Shown in pieces: positions 4,701-64,000 of a stretch of 64,000 nucleotides of DNA. This DNA is from Euglena gracilis. Taxonomy: Eukaryota. The notes below the pieces were generated by a model that saw nothing but the letters and a program-made list of their open reading frames with translations, searched no databases and was not told the origin of the DNA. How positions within the stretch are numbered: the first letter of the stretch is position 1; each line of letters begins with the position of its first letter. A program made the translations under genes and the position numbers. The stretch is taken from the NCBI GenBank assembly GCA_039621445.1, contig CP154954.1:38773816-38837815 (forward strand), in the 5' to 3' direction.

Positions 4701-7700
4701 GGAGGTTCGTCCCCCCCACCCCGGACAACGAAACTTTTAAAAAAACGTCTGAATTCACGAACCCTGGGCACTGAACCCTGGCTGGACTGGTTCCTGCGCC
4801 GCAGCATCGGCCGGCGGCGCAGCGGGCTCCGGCGGCGGCGCTCCAGGCTGCGCCGGCGGTGCGGCAGGCGGTGCGGCGGCAAGCCATTGCCTTTGATGGG
4901 AGGGACGGGGTGGCCCGGGTGTCCCATCCCCCCAGCTTCAGCTGAACACAAACCCTGAGTTCCTTCGAAGCCACCCCAGCGCTGGAGGAGGGTCCACCGC
5001 TGAAGGAGGGTTGGCCTGGCTGTTCTGCCGCGAAGTGCAGGAAAGGGGGCTGAGGGGTGGGGGGTTAGGCAACGGCCTGTACGGCAGGGGGGTTGCCGAG
5101 CCCGAGGGCTTCGCGAAACCAGGCGATCACGCCAGGCGGTGGGGGCGGTTGTCGGTCCCGCCAGCACTGGAGGGGGCTGCGGGTGTTGATGAAGGGGGCG
5201 GGGGCTTGGCGGCAGGCTTTTTCCCGTTTGAAACTGCACATGTGCCTTGTGCCTCGGGGGGGGGGGGGAGGGAGGATTCAGAGTGTGGCGGAGGTGGGTG
5301 GGTGGAGCACTGAATGTGGCTTTCGGGCAGGCATTTTGGTGCCAGGCAAAAAGGGCCTGGGCGCTCGGCCTGTTTCCTTTCAGCGCCGGAAACCCAGAAA
5401 AGGGCCGTTTTCGGACAAATTTTAGCCAACGGCCAGGCATCCACCAGTCCACCCAGGCACACCCGGCACAGGGCAGCACTGCGCAAAAAAGAAATGTTTT
5501 GGCAAGGCAATGAATGAATAATTTTACTGAAAGTTCGGCGTGGGACAAGGCGTGTGTGACTTGGCTTAAGGCTTGTAGACAATATGACAAGGGGCGGACC
5601 CCACCCTGCCCAGGATGGGGGTGAGGGTGGTCAGGGATTCCCTTCCACCTCCTGAAGGGTTTTTTTGGGGGTTTCGGGGATTCTTTTCAGCCGTTCCATG
5701 TGCCCCGGGGTGGTGTCAGTGTAGTTTGGAATGGCTGGGAAACCACAAGAACAATTTGGGAGGAGGGAGGGTCACGGCACACCCTGCCCCCCCCCCAAAG
5801 AAGGGGCAAAAGAAGGAAAAGAAGGAAATAAGAAAGGAAGCCTGGGTGCAGGACTAGGGCGTGTAGGCCCAGGTCCCCCAGGCCGCCGGCCGCGATGGCG
5901 ATGAGGTGGGCCACCCGCACGCCGTAGTAGGCGGCGTTGTGCCGCCACGCCTGGTCTCACTGGCGGGGGGGGGGGAGGGGAGGGGAGGGGAGGAAGGGGC
6001 CACGCTCAGGCTTCGTTTAACAAACCCCAAGGGCGGTGCCTTGTGCTGTGGGGTGCCTGCCCACAGCAGGCACCCTGGGGGGGTTCGGCCCCTGGTGCCT
6101 TACAACCCAGCCATTTTCCCTTGCAAATGGCCATTTTCAGGTCCTCCCGACACCGGATGTGCTGTAGCACTGCCCAACTCCAAAACTTGACCCCACCACC
6201 CAGGTGGGGATCAAACATACCCCCCCCCCAACCTGCCCACACCACCCACCCTGAGGGGGGGGGGGTGCGGTGCAGGCTTTTGCTAAGGACCGGGGGGGGG
6301 GTACTGGTTAGCCAATCGGCTAGACACTGGAAAAAGTGGACAAGCTAGACCCCCCTCCCGGCCGGGGGGGGGGGGGTTCGGGGGTCCCCCGGACTGGAAA
6401 TTTTCTTTACTCCGGCGCTGTGCGCCGGAGGAAAAATGAGGATTTTAACAGGTTTTGGGCTGATTTTTGTTCCAAAAAATCCCAAAAAATGGCCAAAAAC
6501 GGGCATTTTTGGCCATTTTTGGGGGTCCCAAAAAAATTGGCTATCCCTGGCTATCACTGGCTATCCCTGCTAGCAGACCCCCAGGGGGGTCTGCTAGAAA
6601 TCCCGCTAGCCAAATTTGGACCAGCTGCAGTCCAGCCCCCAGGGGGGGGGGGTACTGCAATCCCTCAAGCAAAAGCCTGGTGCGGTGCGACTTTCCTCAA
6701 AAAGAAGTCTGGCCACGCTGTCAAATGAAAAGCAAATCAAAACACATTTCCAGCCAGGGGGGGGTGGGGGGATTCTGAGGCAGGGCGTGGCCCACCGTAG
6801 CCGTTGCCTTCGACGAGGGGGCGGAGGCGGGCAGCGGTAGCGTGGACGAGGGCGGCGGCGGCTAGCGGCGGGGGGCCCCTTGTGAGGGGGGAACGATGCA
6901 GCCTTTCCATTTCATTTCATTTAAACAGATGCTGAGAGTCTCGGAAACTGTGAGAAAATGAACTGAGGGGTGGAACTTCCCCCCCCCCCTCCGTTTCCAC
7001 TCTCATCTGGGTCCGAAAAATTGAATGTTCCCTTGAAAACTGACAATCAATCACTCAAGTGCAGGTGACCCCCCCAGGAAGGAATACATCAAACAAAACC
7101 AAATGAAAATTTGGCTGCCGCTGAGACATACCCCAGGGAAACTGATGGACAGACAGCGTAAACTTAAATGGACAGGTGCAAGACAGCGCCAAATCTGAAT
7201 CATGTCCAAAGGGGGGGGGCAAGTGGGAATGCCAACGAGATGGGGTGAGGGCAGGATGCGATATGAAGGCAGGTGGGGGGACGACACCCCCCAGGTGTCA
7301 TCCCAGGTGGAGAGAAAGACCCCCAAGGACCCCTGCCCCATGAAAGCAATGGATCAGGTGAGTGGCTTCGGGGGTGGACCCCGGCACCCCCCCCACCCGA
7401 GTGGGTCCGGGGGGACGACCCCCCCCCCCGTTCTATCGAACTCTGGTTGAGAGACAGTTTGACCAACCCACAGAGACACCCCGATCGCGCTGCATGGGTA
7501 GCGGCGGGGCACCCACAGCAGCCGTGGGCGGAGGTAATCCACCCACAGCCAGCCGTAGGTGCCAGCCACCACTGCCCACGCCAACGCATTGGCCAGGTGG
7601 CTGTCGATGGGCGAGATCCGCGACAGGGGCGCGCCGTTCCTCGGTGGACACTTCTGGCCAGGGGTTTTTTTAAAGACCTGGGGGGGGGGGTTCCCAGGGG

Positions 7701-8543
7701 ATCCACTCACTTTTCCCAAAAATGGCCAAAAATCGCAAAAATGCTGAAAACAGCACCTTTTCAAAAATTGGGGGCAGGGGTTTTATTAAGACCGGGGGGG
7801 AGGGGGTCCCCCCACCCACCCACCCCCTGGGGGGGGGGCCGGGGGGGTCCCGGGGGACCCACAAAAAAATGGCCAAAAAATCGCGAAAAGTGCTAAAAAT
7901 AGCATCTTTTCGGCGCCTGCGGCGCCGAAAAGCATATCCCACCCCCCTCTGGGGGGACCCCCCGGGGGGGGGGGCTCGGCCGGACCCACCCCCCCTCCCC
8001 CCCCCTCCCCCCGGGGGTCCACGACTAAAAAAAACCCCTGGTTGGGGGCTTCGCCGGACCCACCCACCTATCCTCCGGGGGTCCAAGACTGAAAAAAAAC
8101 CCCTGCTTCTGGCCAAACCCCCAAAATGGGTCTGTTAGGGATCTGCAACAACCTGTCAGGGAGGAAAATCACTGCAGAGAAGATTTGCCGCTTTGCACTG
8201 AGAAATACGTTTGGGTGTTCACCAACCAGGGTTGGGGGGGTTCTGTTGTGAAAAAATCCTCATCACCCAGTTTGGGGGGTGCTTTCCAAAAAGGAAATCT
8301 GCCTGGCCACCCAGCGCCGCCCTGCGCATCGAGCTGGCGGCGCCGATGGCGGTGAGGAGGGGCACCAGCCACCAGCAGCAGCCACGGAACTGTGAGACGG
8401 GGGGGAAGGGGAATGCAAGAGCACGTTGGGATAATGCCGGAAAGAAGGGAAGAGTTCATTGTTTTAAAGAGGGAGGGGGGCACCCACCCCCCAAAAAGAA
8501 AGGAAGAGGAGGTCCGGGGGGGGGGGGCCGTGCGTTTATGGGC

Positions 8544-8605
<62 letters not shown>

Positions 8606-11600
8606 CTAATAAAAATAATAATGATAGTCGTCGTCATCATCATAATCACCCCCCCTGATTTTCACAAAAGCGTTCAAGTCGGCAAAAATTGGCAAAATGG
8701 CAGAAAATTTGAACATAAAAATTTGGCTTTGGAGCCAGGGTTCTTTTTTTTTGAGACTGGGGGGGAGGGGGTCGGCATCCACCCACCCACCCCTTGGGGC
8801 GCCCCTCCCCCGGGGGTCCCGGGTTTGCCCGAAAATGGCAAAAATGCTGAAAATTGCACCTTTTCGGTGCCTTTGGCGCTGAAAAAGATATGCCCACCAG
8901 CACCTGCACCCACCAACCCCCCCCCCCCGCCCCTGGGGGGAGGGGATCCAAGGGACCCACCCACCCTACCCCCCGGGGGGGGGGGAGGGGGGGCCAAGAC
9001 AAAAAAAACCCCTGAGTGGAGCTTCCATGACAGGATACCGCCCAAACAACAGATTTCCCTCCAATATGTTTTTTGTTGACTCAAGCAAAGAACTGCTTTC
9101 TCTGATCCGTGCGGGAAGTGCCAGGCTGGCTGGAAACATGATAAATACCCAAAAAAACATTTGGCACCAATTTGCGTTTGCACCACCACGACTCCCAGCT
9201 GGAAGAAAGGTGCTGGCTTCCACCTATTGGCACTTTCCACTTGGAGCACATGGGATGGGGGCACATTGAGGAGGCATCACACACCGTGCGGGTCGGTGGC
9301 CTGTTGTGGCGGGTGGCGTTCTGGGCGGCTTCGCGGGCGGCCACAGCTGGTGCCCACTGTGAAGGGAAAGGGGATGTAAGCTTCAAAATCAGAATCGTTG
9401 GCAGGTGCAGATGCATCTGGAGAAGAATGTTTCCCCAAACCCCAAAGAATGCCCAAGGTTCAAGTGAGGATTTTCTTGGGACCGCAGCAGAATTGGAAAA
9501 GGGATTTTGAATTACGCGTAAATTGGACACCAGATGAATGAAACTTGCAAAAATATTACACCTGGCGGGGTTTTTTTTTTAAGACCGGGGGAGGGGGGTC
9601 CCCCCCACCCACCCACCCCCTGGGGGGGGGGCCCCGGGGGGGGGGCCCGGGGGACCCACACAAAAAATGGCCGAAAAATTGCGAAAAGTGCTAAAAATAG
9701 AATTTTTTCGGCGCCTGGGGCGCTGAGAAGTATATCCCACCACCCTCCGGGGGGACCCCCCCCGGGGGGGGGGGCTCGGCCAGACCCACCCATCCAGTCG
9801 TGGACCCCCCCCCCGGGGTCCACGACTAAAAAAACCCCTGACCTGGCTCCCAAAGTTTTTTCACGCCTGGCAAAATATTTGCCTCAACGTGTCAGAATTT
9901 TTCCCCACAGCCAAAGCCCCCCCCAAATCGGGGCATTTAAGGGCATTTTTTTGAAAAAATTTTGGTGTTTCGCACCAGGTCCCCTTGGGTGGTCAAAAAT
10001 CTTCGGCACTTGTCGGGAGGGGCAGCAGACTCACCAAACCCCCCCGCCCCAAACTTAAAAAATCTCTGGTCAGCATCCACTCACTCCCAGGGTTGCAGGT
10101 GGGCACTTTGGGGGTAAATCAGGGTTCGATATAAGGACAGGTGGGGGGGGGGGTCCGGACCCCCCCCTGCGGGCCAGGAGGGGGGGGGGGGGGGGGGGGC
10201 ACCCCCCCCCCCTAAACAGGTGCGCGGTCAGGGTGGCCGAATTTTCGGCCCGGCGCGAAGCGCCGGGCCGAAAATTTTTGACCCCCCAAAACGACCCAAA
10301 GTGCCATTTTGGGCACTTTTTGGGCAAAAATGTGCCAAAAATGCAAAAAATTTTCGGCGCGAAGCGCCGGAGGAAAAAATTGACCCTTTTTGGGGGGGGT
10401 CAATTTTTGCCCCCGAGGGTCGGTCCGGACCCCCCTTGCAGGTGGGGGGGGGTGGTCCGGACCCCCCCCTGCGGGCCAGGAGGGGGGGGGGGGGGGGGGG
10501 ACACCCCCCCCCACCTAAACCATGTACGCCCTCCTTATATCGAACCCTGGGGTAAATATGGAAGCCTATAAATTTTTCGTCACTTTGCGAAAGCAAGGGA
10601 GCAAGCACGCGTCATTTCTGGCAACTCATGGCCACCCCCCCCCCCCGCATGGTGAGGGGCACAGCCACCCCCCCCCCATGCACCAACCTCACCCCATTGA
10701 AAGACAAAATGAACACACCGGTGCATAGAGGCACCATGGGCACAATGGCACCATGGTGCCATTCACATCCGTCTCCTTCAGTCCAAAGCGATGGTGGTGT
10801 GGCCACGCGCTTAATTTCTCATTTTATTTTTTAATTTTCTCAATTTCTTTTACGTTTGAAGACTTCAGACGCGCCCGGCATCAAACTTCATTTCATAATT
10901 TCCTGTGTTAATGAAGCCCTCAATGTTTTTCACAACGTGTTTCCAATTAAAAGAAAAACTTTTTTTTAAAAAAATAGGGATGGACCAGGGGCTGCTGGGC
11001 CCCAACCCAGAAAACCCCACAGCTGCAGGGCTTGGGTTCTTCCCAGGTCAAAAGAACCCAAACTGTAGAGTGGTGTGCAACACAGGCTGGGGGGATGAAT
11101 GAGCTTGGGGTGGAGATAACCGGGGGGGGGGGGTGGGGGGCCTGGGCAACGGTGATTCACAGCCAACCCATTAGTTGGATTCCATTGAACAAAGCAAATA
11201 AGCGCGTGGGTGGCAGCGGGCGCAGAGGGTGGGGTCGGCCACCGCGTGCAGCGCCTGGAGGCGCTTCGCGGTGGCCTCCTCCGCCGTCTCCACGATCCAC
11301 CAATACTCGCCGGCAGGCTGAGTATTGGTGGAAGGCTGCGATGAAGAGTTTCTTTTTTTTTTTAACTCAAAGAGGGTCTCAAACAGGGACAGCAACAGAG
11401 GTGTCCCCTGAAGCTTTTATGGATTCGGAAGGCACCCAAGGTGGAAAAACTCCACCATATGAAACCCCTCACGCTCACCATTGTTCATCGTCTTCGACCC
11501 TTTCTTCAAACCCCCAAAGTTGTGTCAAATCAAACAACACCCGGCCTGCTCGAGGAGCTGGCGGATGCCGCGGTAGGGGGCGATGACGGGGTTGAAGAGC

Positions 11601-14600
11601 CGCTCAATCCAGGTGGGGGCAGGGTGCAGCTGGCGGTGCCCCCAGGCCCCATTGGAGCGGAGGGGGTTGGGGTTCAGACTGGGGGGGGGCACAAAGCACC
11701 AGGCTGAAAATGTTGCCCCTCCCCCAGAATCGGCCGAAAGAGTTACTTTGGGCACTTTTGGGGCAAAACTTGTCAAAAAAAAGTCCAAAATTGCCTAAAG
11801 AAACCCACAGAAGTGGAAAATTTTGACTTTTGGGTTCTTGGTCAGGACCCCCCACCAGGGTTTGGTATAAGGACAGGTGGGGATGGGGTGGTCTGGATCC
11901 CCCCCTGCGGGCCAGGAGGGGATGGGGGGGGACACCCCCCCACCTTAACAGTGGCGCGGTCTGGGTCACCGAAAAACTTTGACCCCCCCAAAACGACCAA
12001 AAGTGCCATTTTGGGCACTTTTTGGGCAAAGTGTTGCCAAAAAATGCAAAAAATTTTCGGCGCGAAGTGCCATAGGAAAAAATTGACCTTTTTGGGGGGG
12101 TCCCGGGTTCCCCCCCAGCGTTGGTCCGGACCCCCCTGGCACGTGGGGGGGGGGGTGGTCCAGACCCCCGTGCGGGCCGGGGGGACACCCCCCACCTAAA
12201 CCATGTACGCCCTCCTTATATCAAACCCTGCCCCCCCCCTACCACACCACCTCAACAAAAACCGAAGGGCGTCCCATTTCTCCTGGGTACCATGCTTGTG
12301 CTTACCGACCGGGGGGGGGTGGGTGCTATAGGGTGCTTGCCCCTAGCAGGCACACCGGGGGGATAGGGGTCCGGGCCGGACCCAGAAAATTTTCATTGAA
12401 AATGGCCTTTTTTGGGCCCCCGGCGCCTTTGGCGCCAGGGTCGGAGGGGGGTGCCTGCTAGGGGCAGGCACCCCCCAAAACCCTACCCCCCCCCCGAGGG
12501 AGGGGTCGGATTGGGTGCTATGGGGTGCCTGCCCCTAGCACCCACCCCACCCCCCGTGGGGTAGGCACCCGACTAAGCACAAGCCTGCTGGGGACCCTGG
12601 ATGAGGTAAAAATCCCATTGAAAAGGTTTCAAACCCCCTTTTCATAATTTTATACGCTTTTGAGAAAAAATCAGGGGTTTGGGGCTCAAATTCTATCAAA
12701 GAAAAAACTCCTCCAAACCCCATTTTTTGTTTCAATTTGGACCATTTTATTTGTTCTCGCACCAGAAAAATTTTACTCTTCCTCCCCCCTGAGTTTCATT
12801 TCCTCGAAGATTCTAGAGATGGGTCACAAAGTCTGTTGCCCATAAATAGCCACCATCCGCTCGGATCATACATCTCTTTAAGGACCCCGGGGGGGGGGGT
12901 ACTGGGCTAGGGCTAGAAATTTGGGCTGGCTAGAAATTTGGGCTGGCTAGCCCCCCCCCCCGGGGGGGGCTAGGCCCCGGCTGGACCCGAACCGGGGCGA
13001 GCTGGACTGAAATCGGAAAAATGCCCAAAAATGACCTGCAGAACACAGCTTTGAAAAAATGATGCATCTGAAACCCCCCAAAAATGCCCCAAACGCCCCC
13101 CAAACCCCATTTTTGGCCACTTTTGAACACAATTTTTCAAAAAATTTCGGCGCAAAGCGCCGAAAAATTTTGTGCTGGACCCCCCAAAAAAGGGGCTGGC
13201 TAGCTGGGCTAGCAGCACCCCCCCCCCGGGGGGGTGCTGCTGCGGCTGGGCTGGGCCCAAATCGGGGGTGGCTGCAGCCGCCCCCCCGGGGGGGGGGGGG
13301 TCGCAAAACCTTAGAGAGATGTATGGCTCGGATCATCAGCTCAGGGCTCAAAGGCATCATTGTCCACTGACCCTGTCCCTTGCACATCACCCTGGCCACT
13401 CAGGCCAACTGAACAACTGCTTTTTGAGCATATTTTCTCCACTTTCCAGAATTCTGAAATCCCCTTCGGCCATTTCCGGAGGACCTGGGGGGGGCAAAAC
13501 CAAAAAAAACACCCCAATGGGGTCTGTGTGCCGGACCCGCTCCTGCTGCGCGGCGTCGTCGTCCGCTTGCTGGAGGCGCTTGGCGGTGACGACGTTGGCG
13601 GCACGCGGGGTCTGTGGAAGGACAAAAGGGAACAAAGCATAAACGTGGCATAGACGCCACATTTATGGGGGGGAGGTAGCGTGGGTGGGTCCGGCCGAGC
13701 CCCCCCGGGGGGATATGTTTTTCGGTGCCAATTTTTTTTGAAAAGGTGCTATTTTTTGAGCATTTTTTCGCGATTTTGGGGGGATAACTGAGTGGTTCCC
13801 CCAGAGTCCCCCTGGGGGCCTTGCATAAACCCACCCAAATGACTTGGCGGGGCTTCCTCCTGGCAGTGGCCGAATAACTTGGCGGGGGGGGGGAGGGGCA
13901 AATAAAATGGTTCCAATGACTTAGCACCCCCTTTTTAAGGCAAAGTTCCTTCACGATGCTGAAAAAGGTGCCCGAATAACCTGGCAAGGGGGCAGGGCCA
14001 AAAGTTGTTTCCAAAAACCTGGCACCCCGCCAGATTGTCTGGGGGGGGGTTATGCCGGAAAACAGTTTTGAGCAGTTTTTGGGTTGGGGGCCTCGCTGAA
14101 ACAGCACACCAAGCGAGAAAAGAAATGGGGAACCTGGGACTGCCCCACCCAGCCAGGCACCCCCCCCCCACCAGGGGAGATTTTTTCACTTTACATAAAA
14201 ATGCGCTTTTTAATAAAAAAATGCAAAAAAATGGTCAAAAAAAAGACAAAATTTTTGGTTTTGGGGGGAAATCGAGGGCAAGAAAGAAGCTTTCATGATC
14301 AAAAAAAATTCCAGTGAATCCAAAAGAACACCAGGGGAAAAAACCAGGGCTCTCAGGGCTCATGAACAGACTCCACAACCCCCCAAATTGGCAAATTTAA
14401 ACAAAATTTGTCAAAAAATGGCATTTCTTGATGATGGTTGCATGCTTGTGCTTACCAACCGGGGGGGGGGAGGGGGGTGGCTGGGTGCTATAAGGTGCCT
14501 GCCCCTAGCAGGCACACCCCGGGGGGTGGGGCCCAGGGGGGGACCCAGAAATTTTTCATTGCTTGGGGCAGGCACCCCCCCAAAACCCTCCCCCCCCCCC

Positions 14601-17600: not shown

Positions 17601-20600
17601 GACCCAGAAAATTTTCATTGAAAATGGCCTTTTCCGGGCCCCCGGCGCCGGGGTCGGAGGGGGGTGCCTGCTAGGGGCAGGCACCCCCCAAAACCCTACC
17701 CCCCCCCCGGGGGGGTCGGATCGGGTGCTATGGGGTGCCTGCCCCTAGCACCCCCCCCCCGTGGGGTAGGCACCCGACTAAGCACAAGCCTGGTACTGTC
17801 ATTTCACTTTTGCTCAATAAAAAAAACCCTTACATTCGACAATGGAAAAATATCCATGCCAGTCGAAGTTTCAAAGGGCAACTGTGCAGCCAAATGCAAA
17901 ATTTTCCGAACGGAGGCAAATACTTTGGGGATAAAATGCAAACATTTTTGAGATAAAATGCAAACAAATTGGTGGGGGAAGTGCAAAAATACATGGTCTG
18001 AAATGCGAAAAATTCAGTTGTTGTCTTCCAAAAAAACAAAAACTGACACCGCTTAAAGCAGCCTCAGGAGGGGGCAGTGGAAGTGGAAAAGTAGCGGGGG
18101 GTGCGGAAGGCCATTCGAGGCTCACTGAGGGGCTCTGGCAGGGGCTCATCGAAAGGCTCTGGCTCGGGCTCGTCGAGGGGCTCTGGCTCGGGCTTGTCGA
18201 GGGGCTCTGGCTCGGGCTCGTCGAGGGGCTCTGGCTCGGGCTTGTCGAGGGGCTCTGGCTCGGGCTCGTCGAGGGGCTCTCGCTCGGGCTCGTCGAGGGG
18301 CTCTGGCTCGGGCTCGAGGGGCTCTGGCTCGGGCTCGTCGAGGAGCTCTGGCTCGGGCTCGTCGAGGGGTTCTGGCTCGGGTTCATTGAGGGGCTCTGGT
18401 TCAGGCTCATCAAGGGGCTCTGGTTCGGGCTCATCAAGGGGCTCTGGCTCAGCTTCGGCCTCATCGAGGGACGGTGGCTCAGCCTCATCAAGGGGCTGTG
18501 GCTTGGCCTCGTCGAGGGCCTGGGGCTCCGGCTCAGCAAGAGACTCTAACTCCTGCTCCTGGAGGGACTCTGGCTCAGGCTGGGTCTCATCGAGGCGTTC
18601 AGGTTCGGCCTCGTCGAGGGGCTCTGGCTTGGCCTCAGCAAGGGGCTGGGCCTCCAGCTCAGCAGGAGGCTCTGGCTCCGGCTCATCGAGGTGCTCAGGG
18701 TCCAGGAGGGCTGCAAGGGGCTGCGGGGCCGGGAGGGCCAGCCGGGCTGGGGGGGCCGGGAGGGCCAGGTGGACTGGGGGGGCCGGGAGGGCCGGCCGGG
18801 CTGGGGGGGCCGGGAGGGCCGGCCGGGCTGGGGGGGCCGGGAGGGCTGGCCGGGCTGCGGGGGCCGGGAGGGCCAGGCGGGCTGGGGGGGCCGGGAGGGC
18901 CGGCCGGGCTGGGGGGGCCGGGAGGGCCGGCCGGGCTGGGGGGGCCGGGAGGGCCAGGTGGACTGGGGGGGCTGGGAGGGCCAGGGAGGCTGGGGGGGCC
19001 GGGAGGGCCAGGCGGGCTGGGGGGGCCGGGAGGGCCGGCCAGGCTGGGGGGGCCGGGAGGGCCAGGCGGGCTGGGGGGGCCGGGAGGGCCGGCCAGGCTG
19101 GGGGGGCCGGGAGGGCCAGGCGGGCTGGGGGGGCCGGGAGGGCCAGGCGGGCTGAGGGGGCCGGGAGGGCCGGCCAGGCTGAGGGGGCCGGCCAGGCTGA
19201 GGGGGCTGGGGGGGCCAGGGAGGCTGCGGGGGCCGGGAGGGCCGGCCGGGCTGGGGGGGCCGGGAGGGAGGGCCGGCCGGGCTGGGGGGGCCGGGAGGGC
19301 CGGCCAGGCTGAGGGGGCCGGCCAGGCTGAGGGGGCTGGGGGGGCCAGGGAGGCTGCGGGGGCCGGGAGGGCCGGCCGGGCTGGGGGGGCCGGGAGGGCC
19401 AGGCGGGCTGAGGGGGCCGGGAGGGCCGGCCGGGCTGGGGGGGCCGGGAGGGCCAGGCGGGCTGAGGGGGCCGGCCAGGCTGAGGGGGCCGGGCAGGCTG
19501 AGGGGGCTGGGGGGGCCAGGGAGGCTGCGGGGGCCGGGAGGGCCGGCCGGGCTGGGGGGGCCGGGAGGGCCGGCCAGGCTGAGGGGGCCGGGAGGGCCGG
19601 CCAGGCTGAGGGGGCCGGCCAGGCTGAGGGGGCTGGGGGGGCCAGGGAGGCTGCGGGGGCCGGGAGGGCCGGCCGGGCCGGGGGGGCCGGGAGGGCCGGC
19701 CGGGCGGAGGGGGCCGGGAGGGCCGGCGGGCTGGGGGGGCGGGGAGGGCCGGCCGGGCTGAGGGGGCCGGGAGGGCCGGCCGGGCTGAGGGGGCCGGGAG
19801 GGCCGGCCGGGCTGAGGGGGCCGGGAGGGCCGGCCGGGCTGGGGGGGCCGGGAGGGCCAGGCGGGCTGAGGGGGCCGGCCGGGCTGGGGGGGCCGGCAGG
19901 GGGGGCCATGGGGCCGGAAGGGCCGGCAGGGGCCGCTGTGGGGCTGGTGGGGCTGGGAGGGCCAGCTGTGGGACGTGGATAAGGCTGCTTCATGCAAACA
20001 TGCTTTTGCTTACTGACCGGGGGGAGGGGGGTGGGTGGGTGCTATAGGGTGCGGGGTGCCTGCCCCTGGCAGGCACACCCCCCAGGGGGGGGGTAAACCC
20101 CCCCAAAATAAGACCGGGGGTCCATTTCATGGGTCGGTTGCTGGAGAGCCCGAGGGGGGGGGGGTCTTGTTCATGGGCAGGGTCCATTTTATGGATTTTT
20201 GCTGGAAATTTTTTCGACACCCCAAAATGTCCAAAAATGCCTCTCCAAATACCAATTTTCGAAAAACTTGGCACTCGCGCCAGACAAATAGGAGAAAATA
20301 TGGTGAATTGTGTGAAAACAGTCCCAAAATGGCAGATTTGCCCCCCCAAATGTCCCATTTTTCAAAAATCCAGCGCTTCGCACCGGCAGGGGGGGTCTTA
20401 TTTATGGGGGGGTCCATTTCATGGATTTTTGCTCGGACTGACCGGGGGGGGGGGTGGTCTTATTTTGGGGGGTCTATTTTATTGGGGGGGGAATTACCAT
20501 GCCCCCCCCCCCCCCTAGTTAGTCACCCCCCCCTATTAGTCACCCTTGGGCCCCAGGCAAAAAAATTTTTTTCGAAGGGAAATATTTTTCTTTAAAAAAC

Positions 20601-28320: not shown

Positions 28321-30639
28321 ACCCCCTCCCAGCCTACCGTTTGGCACCGCTGCACAAGGCCTCCCGTTCTTTGGACAAATAAGGTGTTCACCAACTCTAC
28401 GTGTGCAACATGGTACAATCAACGTTTGAATTTTTCATCGGCTGCCAAAGATGCTCCAACCTTCAACAAAGCAAACAAACAAAGCCCCAACCTTCGGCCA
28501 AAGGACACTCCCAGCATCAATCTCCGACCACTGATCTCCAATGTCACGCCACTTTGCATTTCATCAAATTCCGGCGATCGCGAGGGAATTTCTGGCTGTG
28601 TCAATTGTGCAAGTATAAAATCACCCCTCGATCGAAAGCTCTTTGCATCAGACGACTGGCGATCACCACCAATTTCAGCCACGTCGCCTGGAGCTCTTAT
28701 TTTCTGTCACTGGGGAACCCCCCCAAGGCCCTCAAGTCGTTGATTCGAAGAGGAAAAACGTTTCTGTAGGGTTTATGCAGCATCTTAAACCAAAAATCAC
28801 TGAAAATTGCGACAAATTTCGACTCAGATTCTGGCCGATCCAACCAGCGCGAGCGTCTCTCGGGCTGCGTGCAACGTTAGGGTACCAAGTTACCCCTCGA
28901 TCGAAAGCTCTTTCAAGCTCTTTCTCTTTTCAACAGACGACCAGCGGTGCTCAGATCTTTCCACGCTGCACGGTACTCTATTTCCAAATCTGGGCCAATT
29001 TTCACCAAATTTGGATATCCACCCTAGTGGTCCCCAGCAACGCCGTTCCAGCCTCATGCATCCTCCGCCCCCAGGGGAGGAGGTCCAACGGAATTCCCCC
29101 CCCGCAACTGCCAAATATTTTGATGGTAGCTCCAATCACCTTGTCCAAAAGTTTCAATTACCTTGTCCAAAAGCTTCAAATAACTTTGTCCAAAAGTTTT
29201 AATTTCTTTGTCCAGAAGTTTCAACAATTTTGTCCAAAAGTTTCAATTATTTGTCCGAAAGTTTCAACATCTCTGGGTCCCGGCTGTAAAACGCCGGTTT
29301 AAGAAAAGGGGTGGTGGACAACGGGTTCACGGCAGAACCGGTGTCCGCCACCCCTTTTCTGATATATTGGAGGTATTTGAAGCGGATTGGTCCAAAAAGT
29401 CCGAAATTTGACCCAGGCCAAAAAACCTCCAAGATTGCCAAAAAAAATGACCAGAAAATGGTTTTCCATGTCCATGTGTTAAGCCGGCGTTTGAGACGCC
29501 GGGCTCAGGACAGAACCCGCGTCCCTGGAGACAAGGCACAGGGGGGGGAGGCGGGGACCGAGGGGGGGGGTTGGAAGCGGTACAGGGGGGGGGAGGGGGG
29601 GTCCCCAGAAAATCACAACTGTACTGCCTACCCCCGAGACAGTTGCGACATTTTTCGTCCAATTGAGGTTGGCAATGATGGATTTTGCGAAATTCAGATT
29701 CATTTTGCAAAACATTTGTGTCTTGTAAAAAGAGTGGTAGCCAGTATTTTCACTTTAAACACTTAACGTGACCCCCCCTTATTTGTCCCCCCCCCCCCTA
29801 ATTGGCCAGAGCCCAGGTGGCCAATTAGGGGGGGGGTCTCATTTCAAGGCTTATTCGGGTGTTTTTCGGGGGTTCGCGATTATGAAGGACGGGGTCCAGA
29901 TGGCCAATTGGGGGGGGGGTTAGGGGTAACCCTCCCCCTAATTGTCCCCCCCCCCTAATTGGCCAGAAGGGGGGTCCGGGCCGCCCGGAGGGCGGCCAAA
30001 TAGGGGGGGAGGGGTTGGTAGTAGAAACGCAGGAAGCAGCTTCAATCACTCCCCCTTGGCACACCATGCGGAATTGAGCCAGGGTTGACGTTTTTTTGTT
30101 TTTCAACAAAAAAACGAGTGTATGAGTCGGGGGGGGGGGGTCGCGGGGGGAACGTGGAAGTTTTGACGGGTCTCACGTCAGGGTTGGTTGTTTTAAAACG
30201 GGTCGTTTTAAACAGGTCGTTTAATTCAGTAAAAAACAGTCGAGCCCCTGCGCCGTATAAAACCGCCGGCATTCGTCTTGAATGACACGCATTCAAATTG
30301 CAGAATGGTAGGCTTTGATGCACGAGAAGGAACGTGTCTTTGGCCCTTGCGACGTCCACGCTGCACAGCCAACCGTCAAAAATTATCACACGAACTGTAT
30401 GGACCAAAACTGAAATCCCCGGTTCACTCGGAGGAACTGGACATTTTTTTTTTAGTATGAGGTCTTTCTTTTTCAGGCGTTAATTTCCTGTCGAAATTAT
30501 TGCCTTGCGCAGTTTTTCTGTACAGCCCCCGGGATCCCAAAAAGACAAAAAGTGGAAATTCTCTTTTGAAAAACGGGTTGGCGTAGCACATGATGGTTGC
30601 AAAACATTTCATCTGTTCCAGCAGTGTTCATGACACTCG

Positions 30640-30990
30640 GGAAAGTCACTGGGACAAAATGCTGCAACAGGACCAAAAGGTGTCACAGGGGGGCCTTTGC
30701 AGGCCCAGGGCCTTTGCAGGCCACTGGAGCAAAATGGTGTTGGAGGGGGGCCTTTGCAGGACCAGGGCCTTTGCAGGCCACTGGGGCAAAATGATGCAAC
30801 AGATCGAAATGGTGTCACAGGGGGGCCTTTGCAGGCCCAGTGACTTTGCAGGACACTGGGGTAAAACGGTGTAACTGAGAGGTTGGGGTGGCAAAATGTT
30901 TTTCAATGTCAAGTCAAAACTGCTGCAAAAAGTGTCACTGAGGGGTTGGGGTTGCAAAATGTTTTTCAATGTCAAGTCAAAAATGCTGCA
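30640..30990. repeat. Degenerate tandem repeats (GGGGGCCTTTGCAGG units, then two ~63-bp units)
   Basis: Seen directly. Confidence 0.75.
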
Positions 30991-31261
30991 AAATGTGTCA
31001 CAGCTTTTGGTGAAACATGTGCTGTGAAAACTGGGGATTTGCCACTTCAATTGATCAGAGGTTTGGGATGCAATGCAGAACACAGAAAAGAAGACCTTGG
31101 AGCTGAAAGTAGCACTTAATGGTTGGCAGATGGGGGGCCTTTGCAGGCCCAATACAGCCCACAGCAGCATGGTGAAGTTCTGCAGCAGCAAGACCAAAGG
31201 GCTGAGAAGCCCAAGAACTTGAGTTCTTCTTTGTCTTGTCTTCAGCTTGTACTTTTGCTTG

Positions 31262-31340
31262 ACTTCTGCTTCTGCCTGCACCAGCAGGACTTCTTCTGCC
31301 TGCACCAGCAGGACTTCTTCTGCCTGCACCAGCAGGACTT
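31262..31340. repeat. 24-bp tandem repeat, about 3 copies (CTTCTTCTGCCTGCACCAGCAGGA)
   Basis: Seen directly. Confidence 0.85.
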
Positions 31341-32160
31341 GTGAGTAACTTTCGGTGGTAGTTGTACTCTTGACTTGGATATTTGTCCCCACCAGGGGCT
31401 TTCAATTGTCCGCCATGTATTATGCGGAAAAAAATAGACACCCAGGACAGAAGTTAGGAATCAGGCTGTCTTCGCGACCTGAATTGTTGGAAACTGTTTG
31501 GAACATGTTTAAAACAGTTTTTTTGTATTTTACTCCTCCCAGGTGTTTTAATTCCAACCCTGTCTCACGTGACAAGTGTGACCTCTCATACAACGTCACA
31601 TGGGACCTATTTTTAGAACTTTTGGGTCCAATAGCTCCAATTAGGAATTTGTCACACATTTTAGGCATTTTTGATTCCTAATTTGGGTGCAAATTCCTAA
31701 TTAGGTGCCCTTTTTTGGCTCCTACTGGGATTCGGAAACCCTCCATGTGTGGGGGGGGGGGGTCGCGGGGGGGTCGCGGGGGGGGGTGGCGGGGGGGGGG
31801 GTCGCGGGGGATACACCCCCAACAAAAAAATATGTTTTTTTTCCAAAAAAAAACACACAAAAACATGTTTTCTTTTTTAGAAAAAGCAAAATTTGACCCT
31901 TTTCCTTGCGAAATGCCCATTTTTTGAGGAAAAGGTTTTAAGGTTATTTTTTTGGTCATCAAAAGTGACGTATTTTTAGTTTTTCCGGCACCTTTAATGG
32001 ACTACGAAGCTGCAGAGATGAAAAAAAGTAAAAAAAAAGTTTAAAAAATTCCCCCAAACCCCCATGAGGTTTTTTTTGTTTTTTTTAAAAAAAAACATAT
32101 TTTTTCTTAGGGGGTACTACCCCCATTCCCCCCCCCCCCCTGGGGGGGGGGGGGGGGGGG

Positions 32161-63524: not shown

Positions 63525-63870
63525 TGAATACTGGACAGATGATGGACAAGATGAAGATGCTACAAGATGCCGATGCTGGACAAGATGCAAATGCTGGACA
63601 CGATGCAGATACTGGACAAGATGCCAATGCTGGACAAGATGAACTGGATGGTTGCTGGACAAGATGCCGATGCTGGACAAAATGCAGATGCTAGACAAGA
63701 TGCAGATACTGGACAAGATGCCGATGCTGGACAAGATGAACTGGATGCAGACACTGGACAAGATGCAGATTCAGTTGTTGGACAAGATGCTGATGCTGGA
63801 CAAGATGCAGATGCTAAACAAAATCAGATACTGGACAAGATGCCGATGCTGGACAAGATGAATTGGATGC
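63525..63870. repeat. 18-bp minisatellite GATGCTGGACAAGATGC(A/C)
   Basis: Seen directly. Confidence 0.9.
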
Positions 63871-64000
63871 AGGCAAGGACAGCCACCGGATCCCACCGGA
63901 TCCCACCGGATCCCACCATCTCCACCATCTTTGGTTGCTTTTTGACCACTTTGACCACTTTTGGCTGCTTTTTGCCCACATTGACCACTTTTGACTGCTT

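Follow-up and report, generated by a model that had tools for sequence, protein, structure and literature searches.

Nested miniature transposons with the end signals of a nonconventional intron at a putative intron/exon border in Euglena gracilis

Can a transposable element enter a gene of Euglena gracilis in such a way that it is an intron from the start, directly abutting an older one? The question is raised by a locus on the minus strand of contig CP154954.1 (assembly GCA_039621445.1), within the 64,000 nucleotides from 38,773,816 to 38,837,815 that were analysed here (the window, from whose first letter all positions below are counted). The original prediction described, in the segment 8308-7651, a MITE (miniature inverted-repeat transposable element) caught in the act of intron birth on an intron/exon boundary, with tandem introns as the result. 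The part of this picture that stood is the transposon copy with its perfect target site duplication (TSD) and its intron signature; the exons and the older intron remain putative, with an RNA depth of 0 on both exons in the three RNA sets mapped. The nested MITE stack is real and the observation is non-random, with the corrections given below, and tandem introns at the locus are plausible. We are nearly certain of the transposon part taken alone. On the context of a gene and an old intron, read from composition and motifs, we are evenly divided, and the explanation as a whole, with transposition, exons, an older intron and removal from RNA, falls slightly short of even chances.

On the minus strand, direct reading gives ...GCGCTGGGT up to 8309, followed by GGC-CAGGCAG from 8308 and, at the far end of this unit, GGGGGTTTG-GCCAG up to 8109. 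The next unit opens with AAG-CAGGGGTTTTTTTT at 8108 and closes with AAAAAAACCCCTG-GCCAG at 7654, after which AAGTGTCC starts at 7653. The letters originally reported across the region agree with this reading, and so does the claim of a perfect 8-bp TSD: GCCAGAAG is found at 8113-8106 and at 7658-7651, identical in 8 of 8 positions. The element between the two copies, 8105-7659, has the ends CAGGGG(T)n...(A)nCCCCTG and terminal inverted repeats of 23 nt that are 83% complementary (7659-7681 / 8083-8105). The segment comprises the following parts.

7659..8105, minus strand: composite MITE of 447 bp with inverted arms and the termini CAGGGG(T)n / (A)nCCCCTG
8106..8113, minus strand: upstream TSD copy, GCCAGAAG, 8/8 against 7651-7658
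7651..7658, minus strand: downstream TSD copy, GCCAGAAG, 8/8 against 8106-8113
7654..8108, minus strand: intron-like unit of 455 nt, AAG + MITE + GCCAG, followed by A, with the pattern N3-CAG...CTG-N5 and a purine (R)
8109..8308, minus strand: putative older nonconventional intron of 200 nt, GGC-CAG...TTG-GCCAG
7654..8308, minus strand: alternative single intron of 655 nt, GGC-CAG...CTG-GCCAG followed by A, candidate in full agreement with the splicing code

Before the insertion, the site would have read ...TTTGGCCAGAAGTGTCC.... Given an mRNA junction GGT/AAG, the target 8-mer consists of the last 5 nt of the intron and the first 3 nt of the exon, so that the geometry originally proposed holds. 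The exon/intron borders at 8309/8308 and 8109/8108 are themselves putative: in the RNA sets and the protein search, no RNA read, contig or protein match places them there.

The insert was originally taken for a single young MITE; it actually consists of two nested copies. When the element was compared with the window by blastn, its positions 74-333 aligned as one unit with 9840-9574 (87% identity over 270 aligned columns). A TSD scan delimited the same part as a complete inner copy with ends CAGGGGTTTTATTAAGACC... and ...GACTAAAAAAAACCCCTG, flanked by its own 8-bp repeats, ATTGGGGG and GTTGGGGG, which agree in 7 of 8 positions. The outer, shorter copy is made up of 7659-7774 and 8041-8105.

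7775..8040, minus strand: inner complete MITE of 266 bp, 87% identical to the copy 9574-9840; fold z = -3.43, computed with its 3+5 flanking nt
7767..7774, no strand assigned: first inner TSD copy, plus-strand letters ATTGGGGG, 7/8 against 8041-8048
8041..8048, no strand assigned: second inner TSD copy, plus-strand letters GTTGGGGG, 7/8 against 7767-7774

The window holds three related families, all of them with CAGGG...CCCTG ends and 8-bp duplications.

Family A, T-run type: 7659-8105 and 7775-8040, with another nested case at 601-1424
Family B, ends CAGGGTTCGATATAAGGA.../...TCCTTATATCGAACCCTG: 10120-10549 (8-bp duplication GGGTAAAT perfect) and 11856-12230, with the copy at 7443-7252 (minus strand) decayed
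Family C: element of 1384 bp at 30179-31562, ends CAGGGTTGG.../...CCAACCCTG, perfect 8-bp duplication TCTCACGT

The MITE copies in the window are 173-447 bp long and without coding capacity. With terminal inverted repeats, a TSD of fixed length (8 bp) and many small copies, they conform to the usual definition of MITEs. The open reading frames (ORFs) of the family C element are without a Pfam match, and the element is probably a longer non-autonomous relative. In the family A copy at 601-1424, flanks TTTCCAAC and ATTCCAAC agree in 7 of 8 positions, and foreign DNA separates the two ends by about 820 bp; it is a second nested insertion within the same window. The decayed family B copy at 7443-7252 directly follows the putative exon 2 described below, and it too has the outline N3-CAG...CTG-N5 followed by A.

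The association of these ends with duplicated flanks exceeds chance. The window contains 458 CAGGG...CCCTG pairs at distances of 40-1500 nt, and the flanking 8-bp repeat is perfect for 3 of them. Permutation of the 3' flanks gives a mean of 0.41, and the number 3 was reached in 2 of 500 permutations. With at most one flank mismatch there are 7 pairs, compared with a mean of 2.42 (maximum 8) over 50 permutations. The end motif CAGGGGTTTTTT, with at most one mismatch, occurs 12 times in the window, where 4.19 occurrences are expected, and none of 100 shuffled sequences reached 12. A metagenome scan for the MITE end yielded 23 loci, none of which matched more than the 20-22 nt pattern itself.

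Sequencing data point to a very abundant family. The DNA contig set X1, the whole of the X17 'RNA?' contigs, and roughly 5% of each of the RNA runs X21 and X22 (12.9 million records from either) were mapped on positions 5020-8540. The X1 word depth reaches 5.9e5-1.05e6 over the inner copy (three bins, 7734-8087) and 1.7e4 over the A-part of the outer copy, while the listed single-copy flank contigs have depths of about 60-96; summed word depth is not copy number and is used here as an order of magnitude only. Judging from these depths, near-identical copies of the inner element form a very large set, whereas the set to which the outer one belongs is smaller. The insertion is present in run X1, since its contig 7524-7666 reaches 8 nt into the element, and there is no empty-site joint among the 15 of 191 joints listed. 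X1 has second letters at 7554 (C>T), 7636 (G>A) and 8224 (A>G), which are allelic or paralogous. The variants at 7554 and 7636 lie in the putative exon 2, where one is non-synonymous and the other synonymous in the proposed frame, and 8224 lies in the old unit. The single-nucleotide polymorphism bubble at 7636 suggests that both X1 alleles carry the insert.

With outer flanks that agree in 8 of 8 positions and inner flanks that agree in 7 of 8, a joint move of the composite and a later landing of the inner copy are both conceivable. We favour the later landing, because near-identical copies of the inner type are abundant; the flanks themselves, at eight letters, are too short to decide between the two orders. 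The anatomy of the transposon, its nesting and its abundance are direct observations, and the same is true of its fit to the splicing code, to which we turn now.

For nonconventional introns of euglenids, Nomura et al. (2025) defined genetically the code 5'-N3CDG-/-CH'GN5-6 followed by R, and found that pairing beyond the motif is also required (PMC12501133). Every single change that they tested within CAG or CTG abolished splicing, and 61.2% of the annotated nonconventional introns of E. agilis fall within the code, which leaves 38.8% outside it (PMC12501133).

The claim that the MITE has the signature of an intron is borne out: 8108-7654 reads AAG-CAG...CTG-GCCAG followed by A, a full match to the code. 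On the 5' side, N3-CDG is found as AAG-CAG in the MITE unit, as GGC-CAG in the old unit and the combined span 8308-7654, and as AAC-CAG in the inner copy. On the 3' side, CH'G-N5-6 is found as CTG-GCCAG in the MITE unit and the combined span, and as CTG-CCCCC in the inner copy; the downstream purine is A at 7653 and A at 8108. The older unit ends in TTG-N5, outside the CH'G rule, and has no claim to textbook status; the single span 8308-7654 agrees with the rule no less well than a tandem pair of introns would.

The pairing of the ends was compared with that of 24,509 control pairs of the form CAG...YTG-N5-R, 100-700 nt apart, in the window. The MITE unit forms an in-register helix of 13 bp (end duplex -29.4 kcal/mol), and only 41 of the 24,509 controls reach at least 12 bp. 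The inner copy, AAC-CAG...CTG-CCCCC followed by A, has a 10-bp in-register helix. In the old unit the helix has 8 bp, two of them G.U, and extends to the very ends, as it does in 852 controls (3.5%). The combined span has a 7-bp helix of Watson-Crick pairs throughout, GGCCAGG/CCUGGCC (duplex -17.7 kcal/mol), which 1,959 controls (8%) also attain. In each of the four units, the minimum free energy (MFE) fold joins +4..+6 to -6..-8. By its sequence, the insert bears a textbook nonconventional-intron signal.

The fit would have a general basis. As the element ends in CAG...CTG and the duplication of 8 equals 3 + 5, any transcript that runs through a copy would carry a ready-made Euglena-type intron. 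By the same arithmetic, the removal of this unit would restore exactly the RNA of the time before the insertion at any landing site of the element. Hence the 5+3 register belongs to the family in general and not to this locus, the peculiarity of which would be confined to the coincidence of the MITE cut point with the 3' end of an older intron.

The original prediction also hinted at repeated use of the same 8-bp target. This finds no support, as the would-be duplicates of the old unit, TGGGTGGC and GCCAGAAG, agree in 0 of 8 letters. The repeat TGGCCAG was considered as a duplication flanking the old unit and dismissed, because it is offset from the N3/N5 register; that it is shared by the two ends of the unit can be attributed to the self-complementary pairing of GGCC.

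Whether the MITE came to lie in a gene has to be judged mostly from composition. Two open segments on the minus strand flank the insertion together with the putative old intron, and two further segments can be attached to them tentatively.

8309..8389, minus strand: putative exon 1 of 27 codons (FRGCCWW...AALG), with a run of pyrimidines and an AG before it, suggested by GC content by codon position
7468..7653, minus strand: putative exon 2, 62 codons (KCPPRNG...VSLW), followed by GT, suggested by GC content at third codon positions (GC3) and an open frame
9285..9356, minus strand: tentative exon of 24 codons farther upstream, bounded by AG...GT, that shares the frame of 8389-8309; speculative
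7051..7194, minus strand: tentative last coding exon after AG at 7196-7195, suggested by the end of an X17 'RNA?' contig; speculative

In the putative exon 1, GC content by codon position is.59/.70/.93 (8389-8309, minus strand), with GC at 25 of 27 third positions (Fisher p = 0.005). For the putative exon 2 the corresponding count is 53 of 62 (Fisher p = 3e-4), and third-position GC is.87-.90 in 90-nt windows across 7653-7466; within the old unit and the MITE, GC by codon position is flat. A strict 186-nt GC3 test is passed by no more than 5 segments of the 64 kb, among them 7468-7657, with one edge at most 4 nt from the proposed junction and the other at the GT. The GC3 frame is open on the minus strand, and the equivalent frame on the plus strand is full of stops. 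The proposed junction unites both GC3 frames, which the GT-AG reading does not. The latter, a conventional intron from 8310 to 8109 or 7654, was rejected, since it would put exon 2 outside the GC3 frame and the AG has no pyrimidine tract before it.

The segments can be linked into a tentative in-frame chain: AG, 9356-9285, GT; AG, 8389-8309; 7653-7468, GT; and AG, 7194-7051 with a stop. Near its end, the X17 set has two overlapping contigs of low depth (about 4) that are colinear at 6793-7194. One of these, 6938-7194, ends exactly after the AG at 7196-7195 (minus strand), and this end may represent a cis-splicing or a spliced-leader acceptor. From these data we infer a gene, exons, an old intron and any splicing. 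That the segments are exons of a real gene, either weakly expressed and lineage-specific or decaying, has in our judgement about even chances.

A number of observations speak against a gene at this site and against the old intron. RNA depth is 0 in the bins 7498-7615, 8206-8323 and 8324-8441 in X17, X21 and X22. RNA reads fall on the MITE parts only, and 208 of 209 (X21) and 113 of 114 (X22) match the stretch partially; since nearly all of them do so, they are best ascribed to other copies of the repeat. The X17 matches, too, are confined to repeat parts and the patch at 6793-7194, to the exclusion of the exons. A phmmer search with the 69-residue translation of exon 2 (7653-7447) against 1.84 billion representatives found no true homologue; its two matches are spurious, because they are to perfect tandem-repeat proteins that multiply a weak match. 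No Pfam family scored above the cut-off in 383 ORFs across the window. In positions 1-22000, these comprise 112 of 190 ORFs of at least 70 amino acids (those with a Gly plus Pro fraction below 0.28, 78 Gly/Pro-rich ones being dropped), and from 21500 onward 271 of 401 ORFs of at least 60 amino acids (fraction below 0.24, 130 dropped). Sub-threshold matches to Rubi_NSP_C, DUF3671, Cornifin and DUF3432 were disregarded.

The compositional signal is also open to doubt. Across the window, 90-nt periodicity is close to that of shuffled sequence (4.1% vs 4.2% at 0.25, 2.1% vs 1.4% at 0.3). The putative peptide is rich in Trp and contains three copies of the motif CTGTGGGT, spaced by 45 and 30 nt, which can give a false impression of periodicity. 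By motif alone the junction has competitors, since of 29 nearby pairs compatible with the code, 9 preserve the frame. A rival in-frame model, with exon 2 extended to 7447 and followed by a nonconventional unit at 7446-7247, is constructed just as easily, so that model building carries little weight here. As to the old unit, it lies outside the 3' rule with TTG-GCCAG, which leaves a G.U pair with the G of CAG. Among 783 random CAG...YTG pairs, 14.6% have an end duplex as good as its -19.7 kcal/mol, and of 200 controls, 25 show pairing in register in the MFE fold. Its whole-fold z of -1.05 is ordinary.

It is thus conceivable that there is no gene at all, and that nested MITEs lie in non-coding, repeat-rich DNA in which chance open stretches with a compositional rhythm look like exons. 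The older intron and the coincidence at the junction would then be an over-reading of CAG...YTG-N5 pairs in a sequence where such pairs are common, as the count of 24,509 in the window attests. The silence of both putative exons in three RNA sets is in line with this view, and so are the lack of a true protein relative and the absence of any Pfam, tRNA or Rfam match in the 64 kb, the near-shuffle periodicity, the 9 of 29 nearby pairs in frame, and an old unit with no target duplication (0/8) and an unremarkable fold. Yet exon 2 is among only five segments in 64 kb that pass the GC3 test, with edges near the junction and the GT; its frame is strand-specific, and exon 1, with 25 of 27, is rich in GC3 in the very frame that the proposed junction keeps. 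An 8-bp in-register helix at the very ends of the old unit (base rate 3.5%) would also have to be accidental, and, with about 5% of two RNA runs read, a weakly expressed gene would escape detection. We regard the absence of a gene as a credible explanation, with a probability appreciably below one half. If instead the gene is real, it could now contain one intron, with a single cut at 8308/7654 that pairs the old GGC-CAG with the CTG-GCCAG of the MITE, and the old 3' site, TTG-GCCAG at 8109, unused and decaying or always weak. The span 8308-7654 fits the code fully while the old unit has TTG, and single changes in CAG or CTG abolished splicing (PMC12501133). The span further offers the 7-bp helix, and its 655-nt MFE fold pairs +4..+6 with -6..-8. 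However, pairing between the two ends of the MITE itself is much stronger (13 bp and -29.4 against 7 bp and -17.7 kcal/mol) and would compete for the 3' CCCCUG, a 7-bp helix has a base rate of 8%, and RNA depth is 0 on both flanks in the RNA sets used. With 38.8% of E. agilis nonconventional introns outside the code, a TTG need not be dead (PMC12501133). A single intron appears unlikely.

The origin of the 8-bp direct repeat could in principle be another one, namely the repair of a double-strand break in place of a transposase footprint. There is a precedent in the 8-nt direct repeats at a newly gained gapC intron of E. agilis, for which repair was proposed (PMC4770533). Against this, the inserted DNA belongs to a multi-copy family with fixed inverted ends, with a word depth thousands-fold above that of single-copy DNA. 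The 8-bp flanks moreover differ from site to site (7659-8105, 7775-8040, 10120-10549, 30179-31562), which is a signature of transposition. We give break repair next to no weight.

The course of events that we favour, insertion by transposition into a probable gene, is the following. A short non-autonomous MITE of a very abundant family inserted at the 8-mer GCCAGAAG and duplicated it, between two GC3-rich open segments of the minus strand, 8389-8309 and 7653-7468. A second complete copy of the same family then entered the first one, or was already nested in it before a joint move. If the segments are exons, an older nonconventional intron of 200 nt had its 3' end within the target 8-mer, in 5+3 register. 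Removal from RNA could then take three routes. The MITE unit could leave first and regenerate the old 3' end, followed by the old intron; the old intron could leave first, followed by the MITE unit with its N3 (AAG) untouched; or the entire span 8308-7654 could leave at once. Because of the duplication the routes are equivalent, and the product GGT/AAG cannot distinguish between them. Removal of the MITE unit as an intron of its own is favoured by its terminal helix, which is by far the best. The one-step route is a close second, as the old 3' motif is TTG and the MITE provides CTG in the same register.

A more far-reaching interpretation can be put forward, which we consider improbable. The old intron, the outer MITE and the inner MITE would represent a three-generation stack of nonconventional introns in the making. 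The geometry of ends plus TSD in a hAT-like burst family would be the euglenid splicing code itself, so that each insertion is born removable. Stacked copies would be peeled off successively over zero-length exons, and the CTG of a newer copy could capture the 3' site of an older intron that has slipped to TTG.

The surroundings of the locus can be described briefly. An (ATA)28 microsatellite at 8544-8626 lies between the putative exon 8389-8309 and a MITE copy at 8738-9014. Nearly 2 kb at 18127-19972 consist of GC-rich tandem arrays with periods of 24, 27, 54, 81 and 126 (GC 0.79), and 3-periodicity is strong at 18094-18858. A strongly 3-periodic repeat at 63543-63934 (score up to 0.70), one frame of which consists of ...LDKMQMLDKM... 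units, is either a coding repeat or a satellite with a period of 3n. The window is dense in G-run/C-run MITEs, and it is either gene-poor or made of very short exons.

With respect to the superfamily, the length of the duplication and the end letters make the families hAT-like. MITEs of the hAT superfamily (Ac/Ds) have in common with the locus an 8-bp TSD, short CAGGG inverted ends, lack of coding capacity, abundance and nesting. The end of Ac, CAGGGATGAAA, resembles the CAGGG ends found here. Giroux et al., cited in PMC3935182, are said to have described in 1994 a Ds element acting as an intron in maize. No transposase domain was detected within the window in the comparison of the 383 ORFs with Pfam. 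Merlin transposons with 8-bp TSDs have been reported in E. gracilis, and this superfamily has a conserved terminal 5'-GG-3' and a duplication of 8-9 bp (PMC8101967). They share the 8-bp TSD with the locus, but have GG ends where the elements here have CAGGG ends (PMC8101967). We rejected this assignment, as symmetric placement of the TSD gives CAGGG...CCCTG at the three copies with perfect duplications, and not the terminal GG.

In the introners, as at this locus, transposon ends and TSD together supply the splice signals; introners use the spliceosome, whereas the signal here is of the euglenid, non-spliceosomal type (PMC11282704). Twintrons and stwintrons (for the latter, PMC12403724) are stacked introns that are removed stepwise, and introns that abut with no exon letters between them would be found likewise here. 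Those cases belong to group II/III or spliceosomal introns, whereas the putative units here are nonconventional and their stepwise removal is a prediction. Recursive splicing at zero-length exons offers a further parallel. In PMC4770533, the word 'twintron' occurs only in the reference list. A search of open full texts, taken without their supplements, found neither a defined Euglena MITE family with such ends nor tandem, abutting or nested nonconventional introns.

The closest comparison is with the nonconventional introns of euglenids themselves. A MITE origin has been proposed for them since 2013, when no transposon had been identified in euglenid genomes (PMC3935182). In 2016, a new and strain-specific intron was described with direct repeats of 8 nt, which were interpreted as the result of break repair (PMC4770533). 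A review of 2024 draws CAG/CTG as inverted ends and the junction repeats as TSD-like (PMC11282704), and the code paper of 2025 still terms the origin unclear (PMC12501133). The general idea is thus known, and what would be new is the concrete family, together with the stacking of its copies at a putative junction. A TSD that straddles an older junction in 5+3 register is to be expected by chance alone in a few cases per genome, according to rough arithmetic with some 1e4 copies and, on the model of E. agilis, some 7e5 introns in a genome of 1.5 Gb (PMC12501133), and the locus itself may plausibly be a curiosity. The greater interest lies in abundant, recently active elements whose CAGGG...CCCTG ends and 8-bp TSD reproduce the N3 + N5 arithmetic of the code, and which make the MITE-origin hypothesis directly testable. 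If transcribed, the locus would be the first one at which nonconventional introns abut or lie nested. It shares with the known ones N3-CAG, CTG-N5, the purine and pairing beyond the motif (PMC12501133). For those introns, a MITE-like origin was proposed on the basis of the intron ends (PMC12501133, PMC3935182, PMC4770533). The locus differs from them in that the transposon can be identified as a multi-copy element with intact TSDs, in that splicing is predicted, and in the TTG of the putative older unit.

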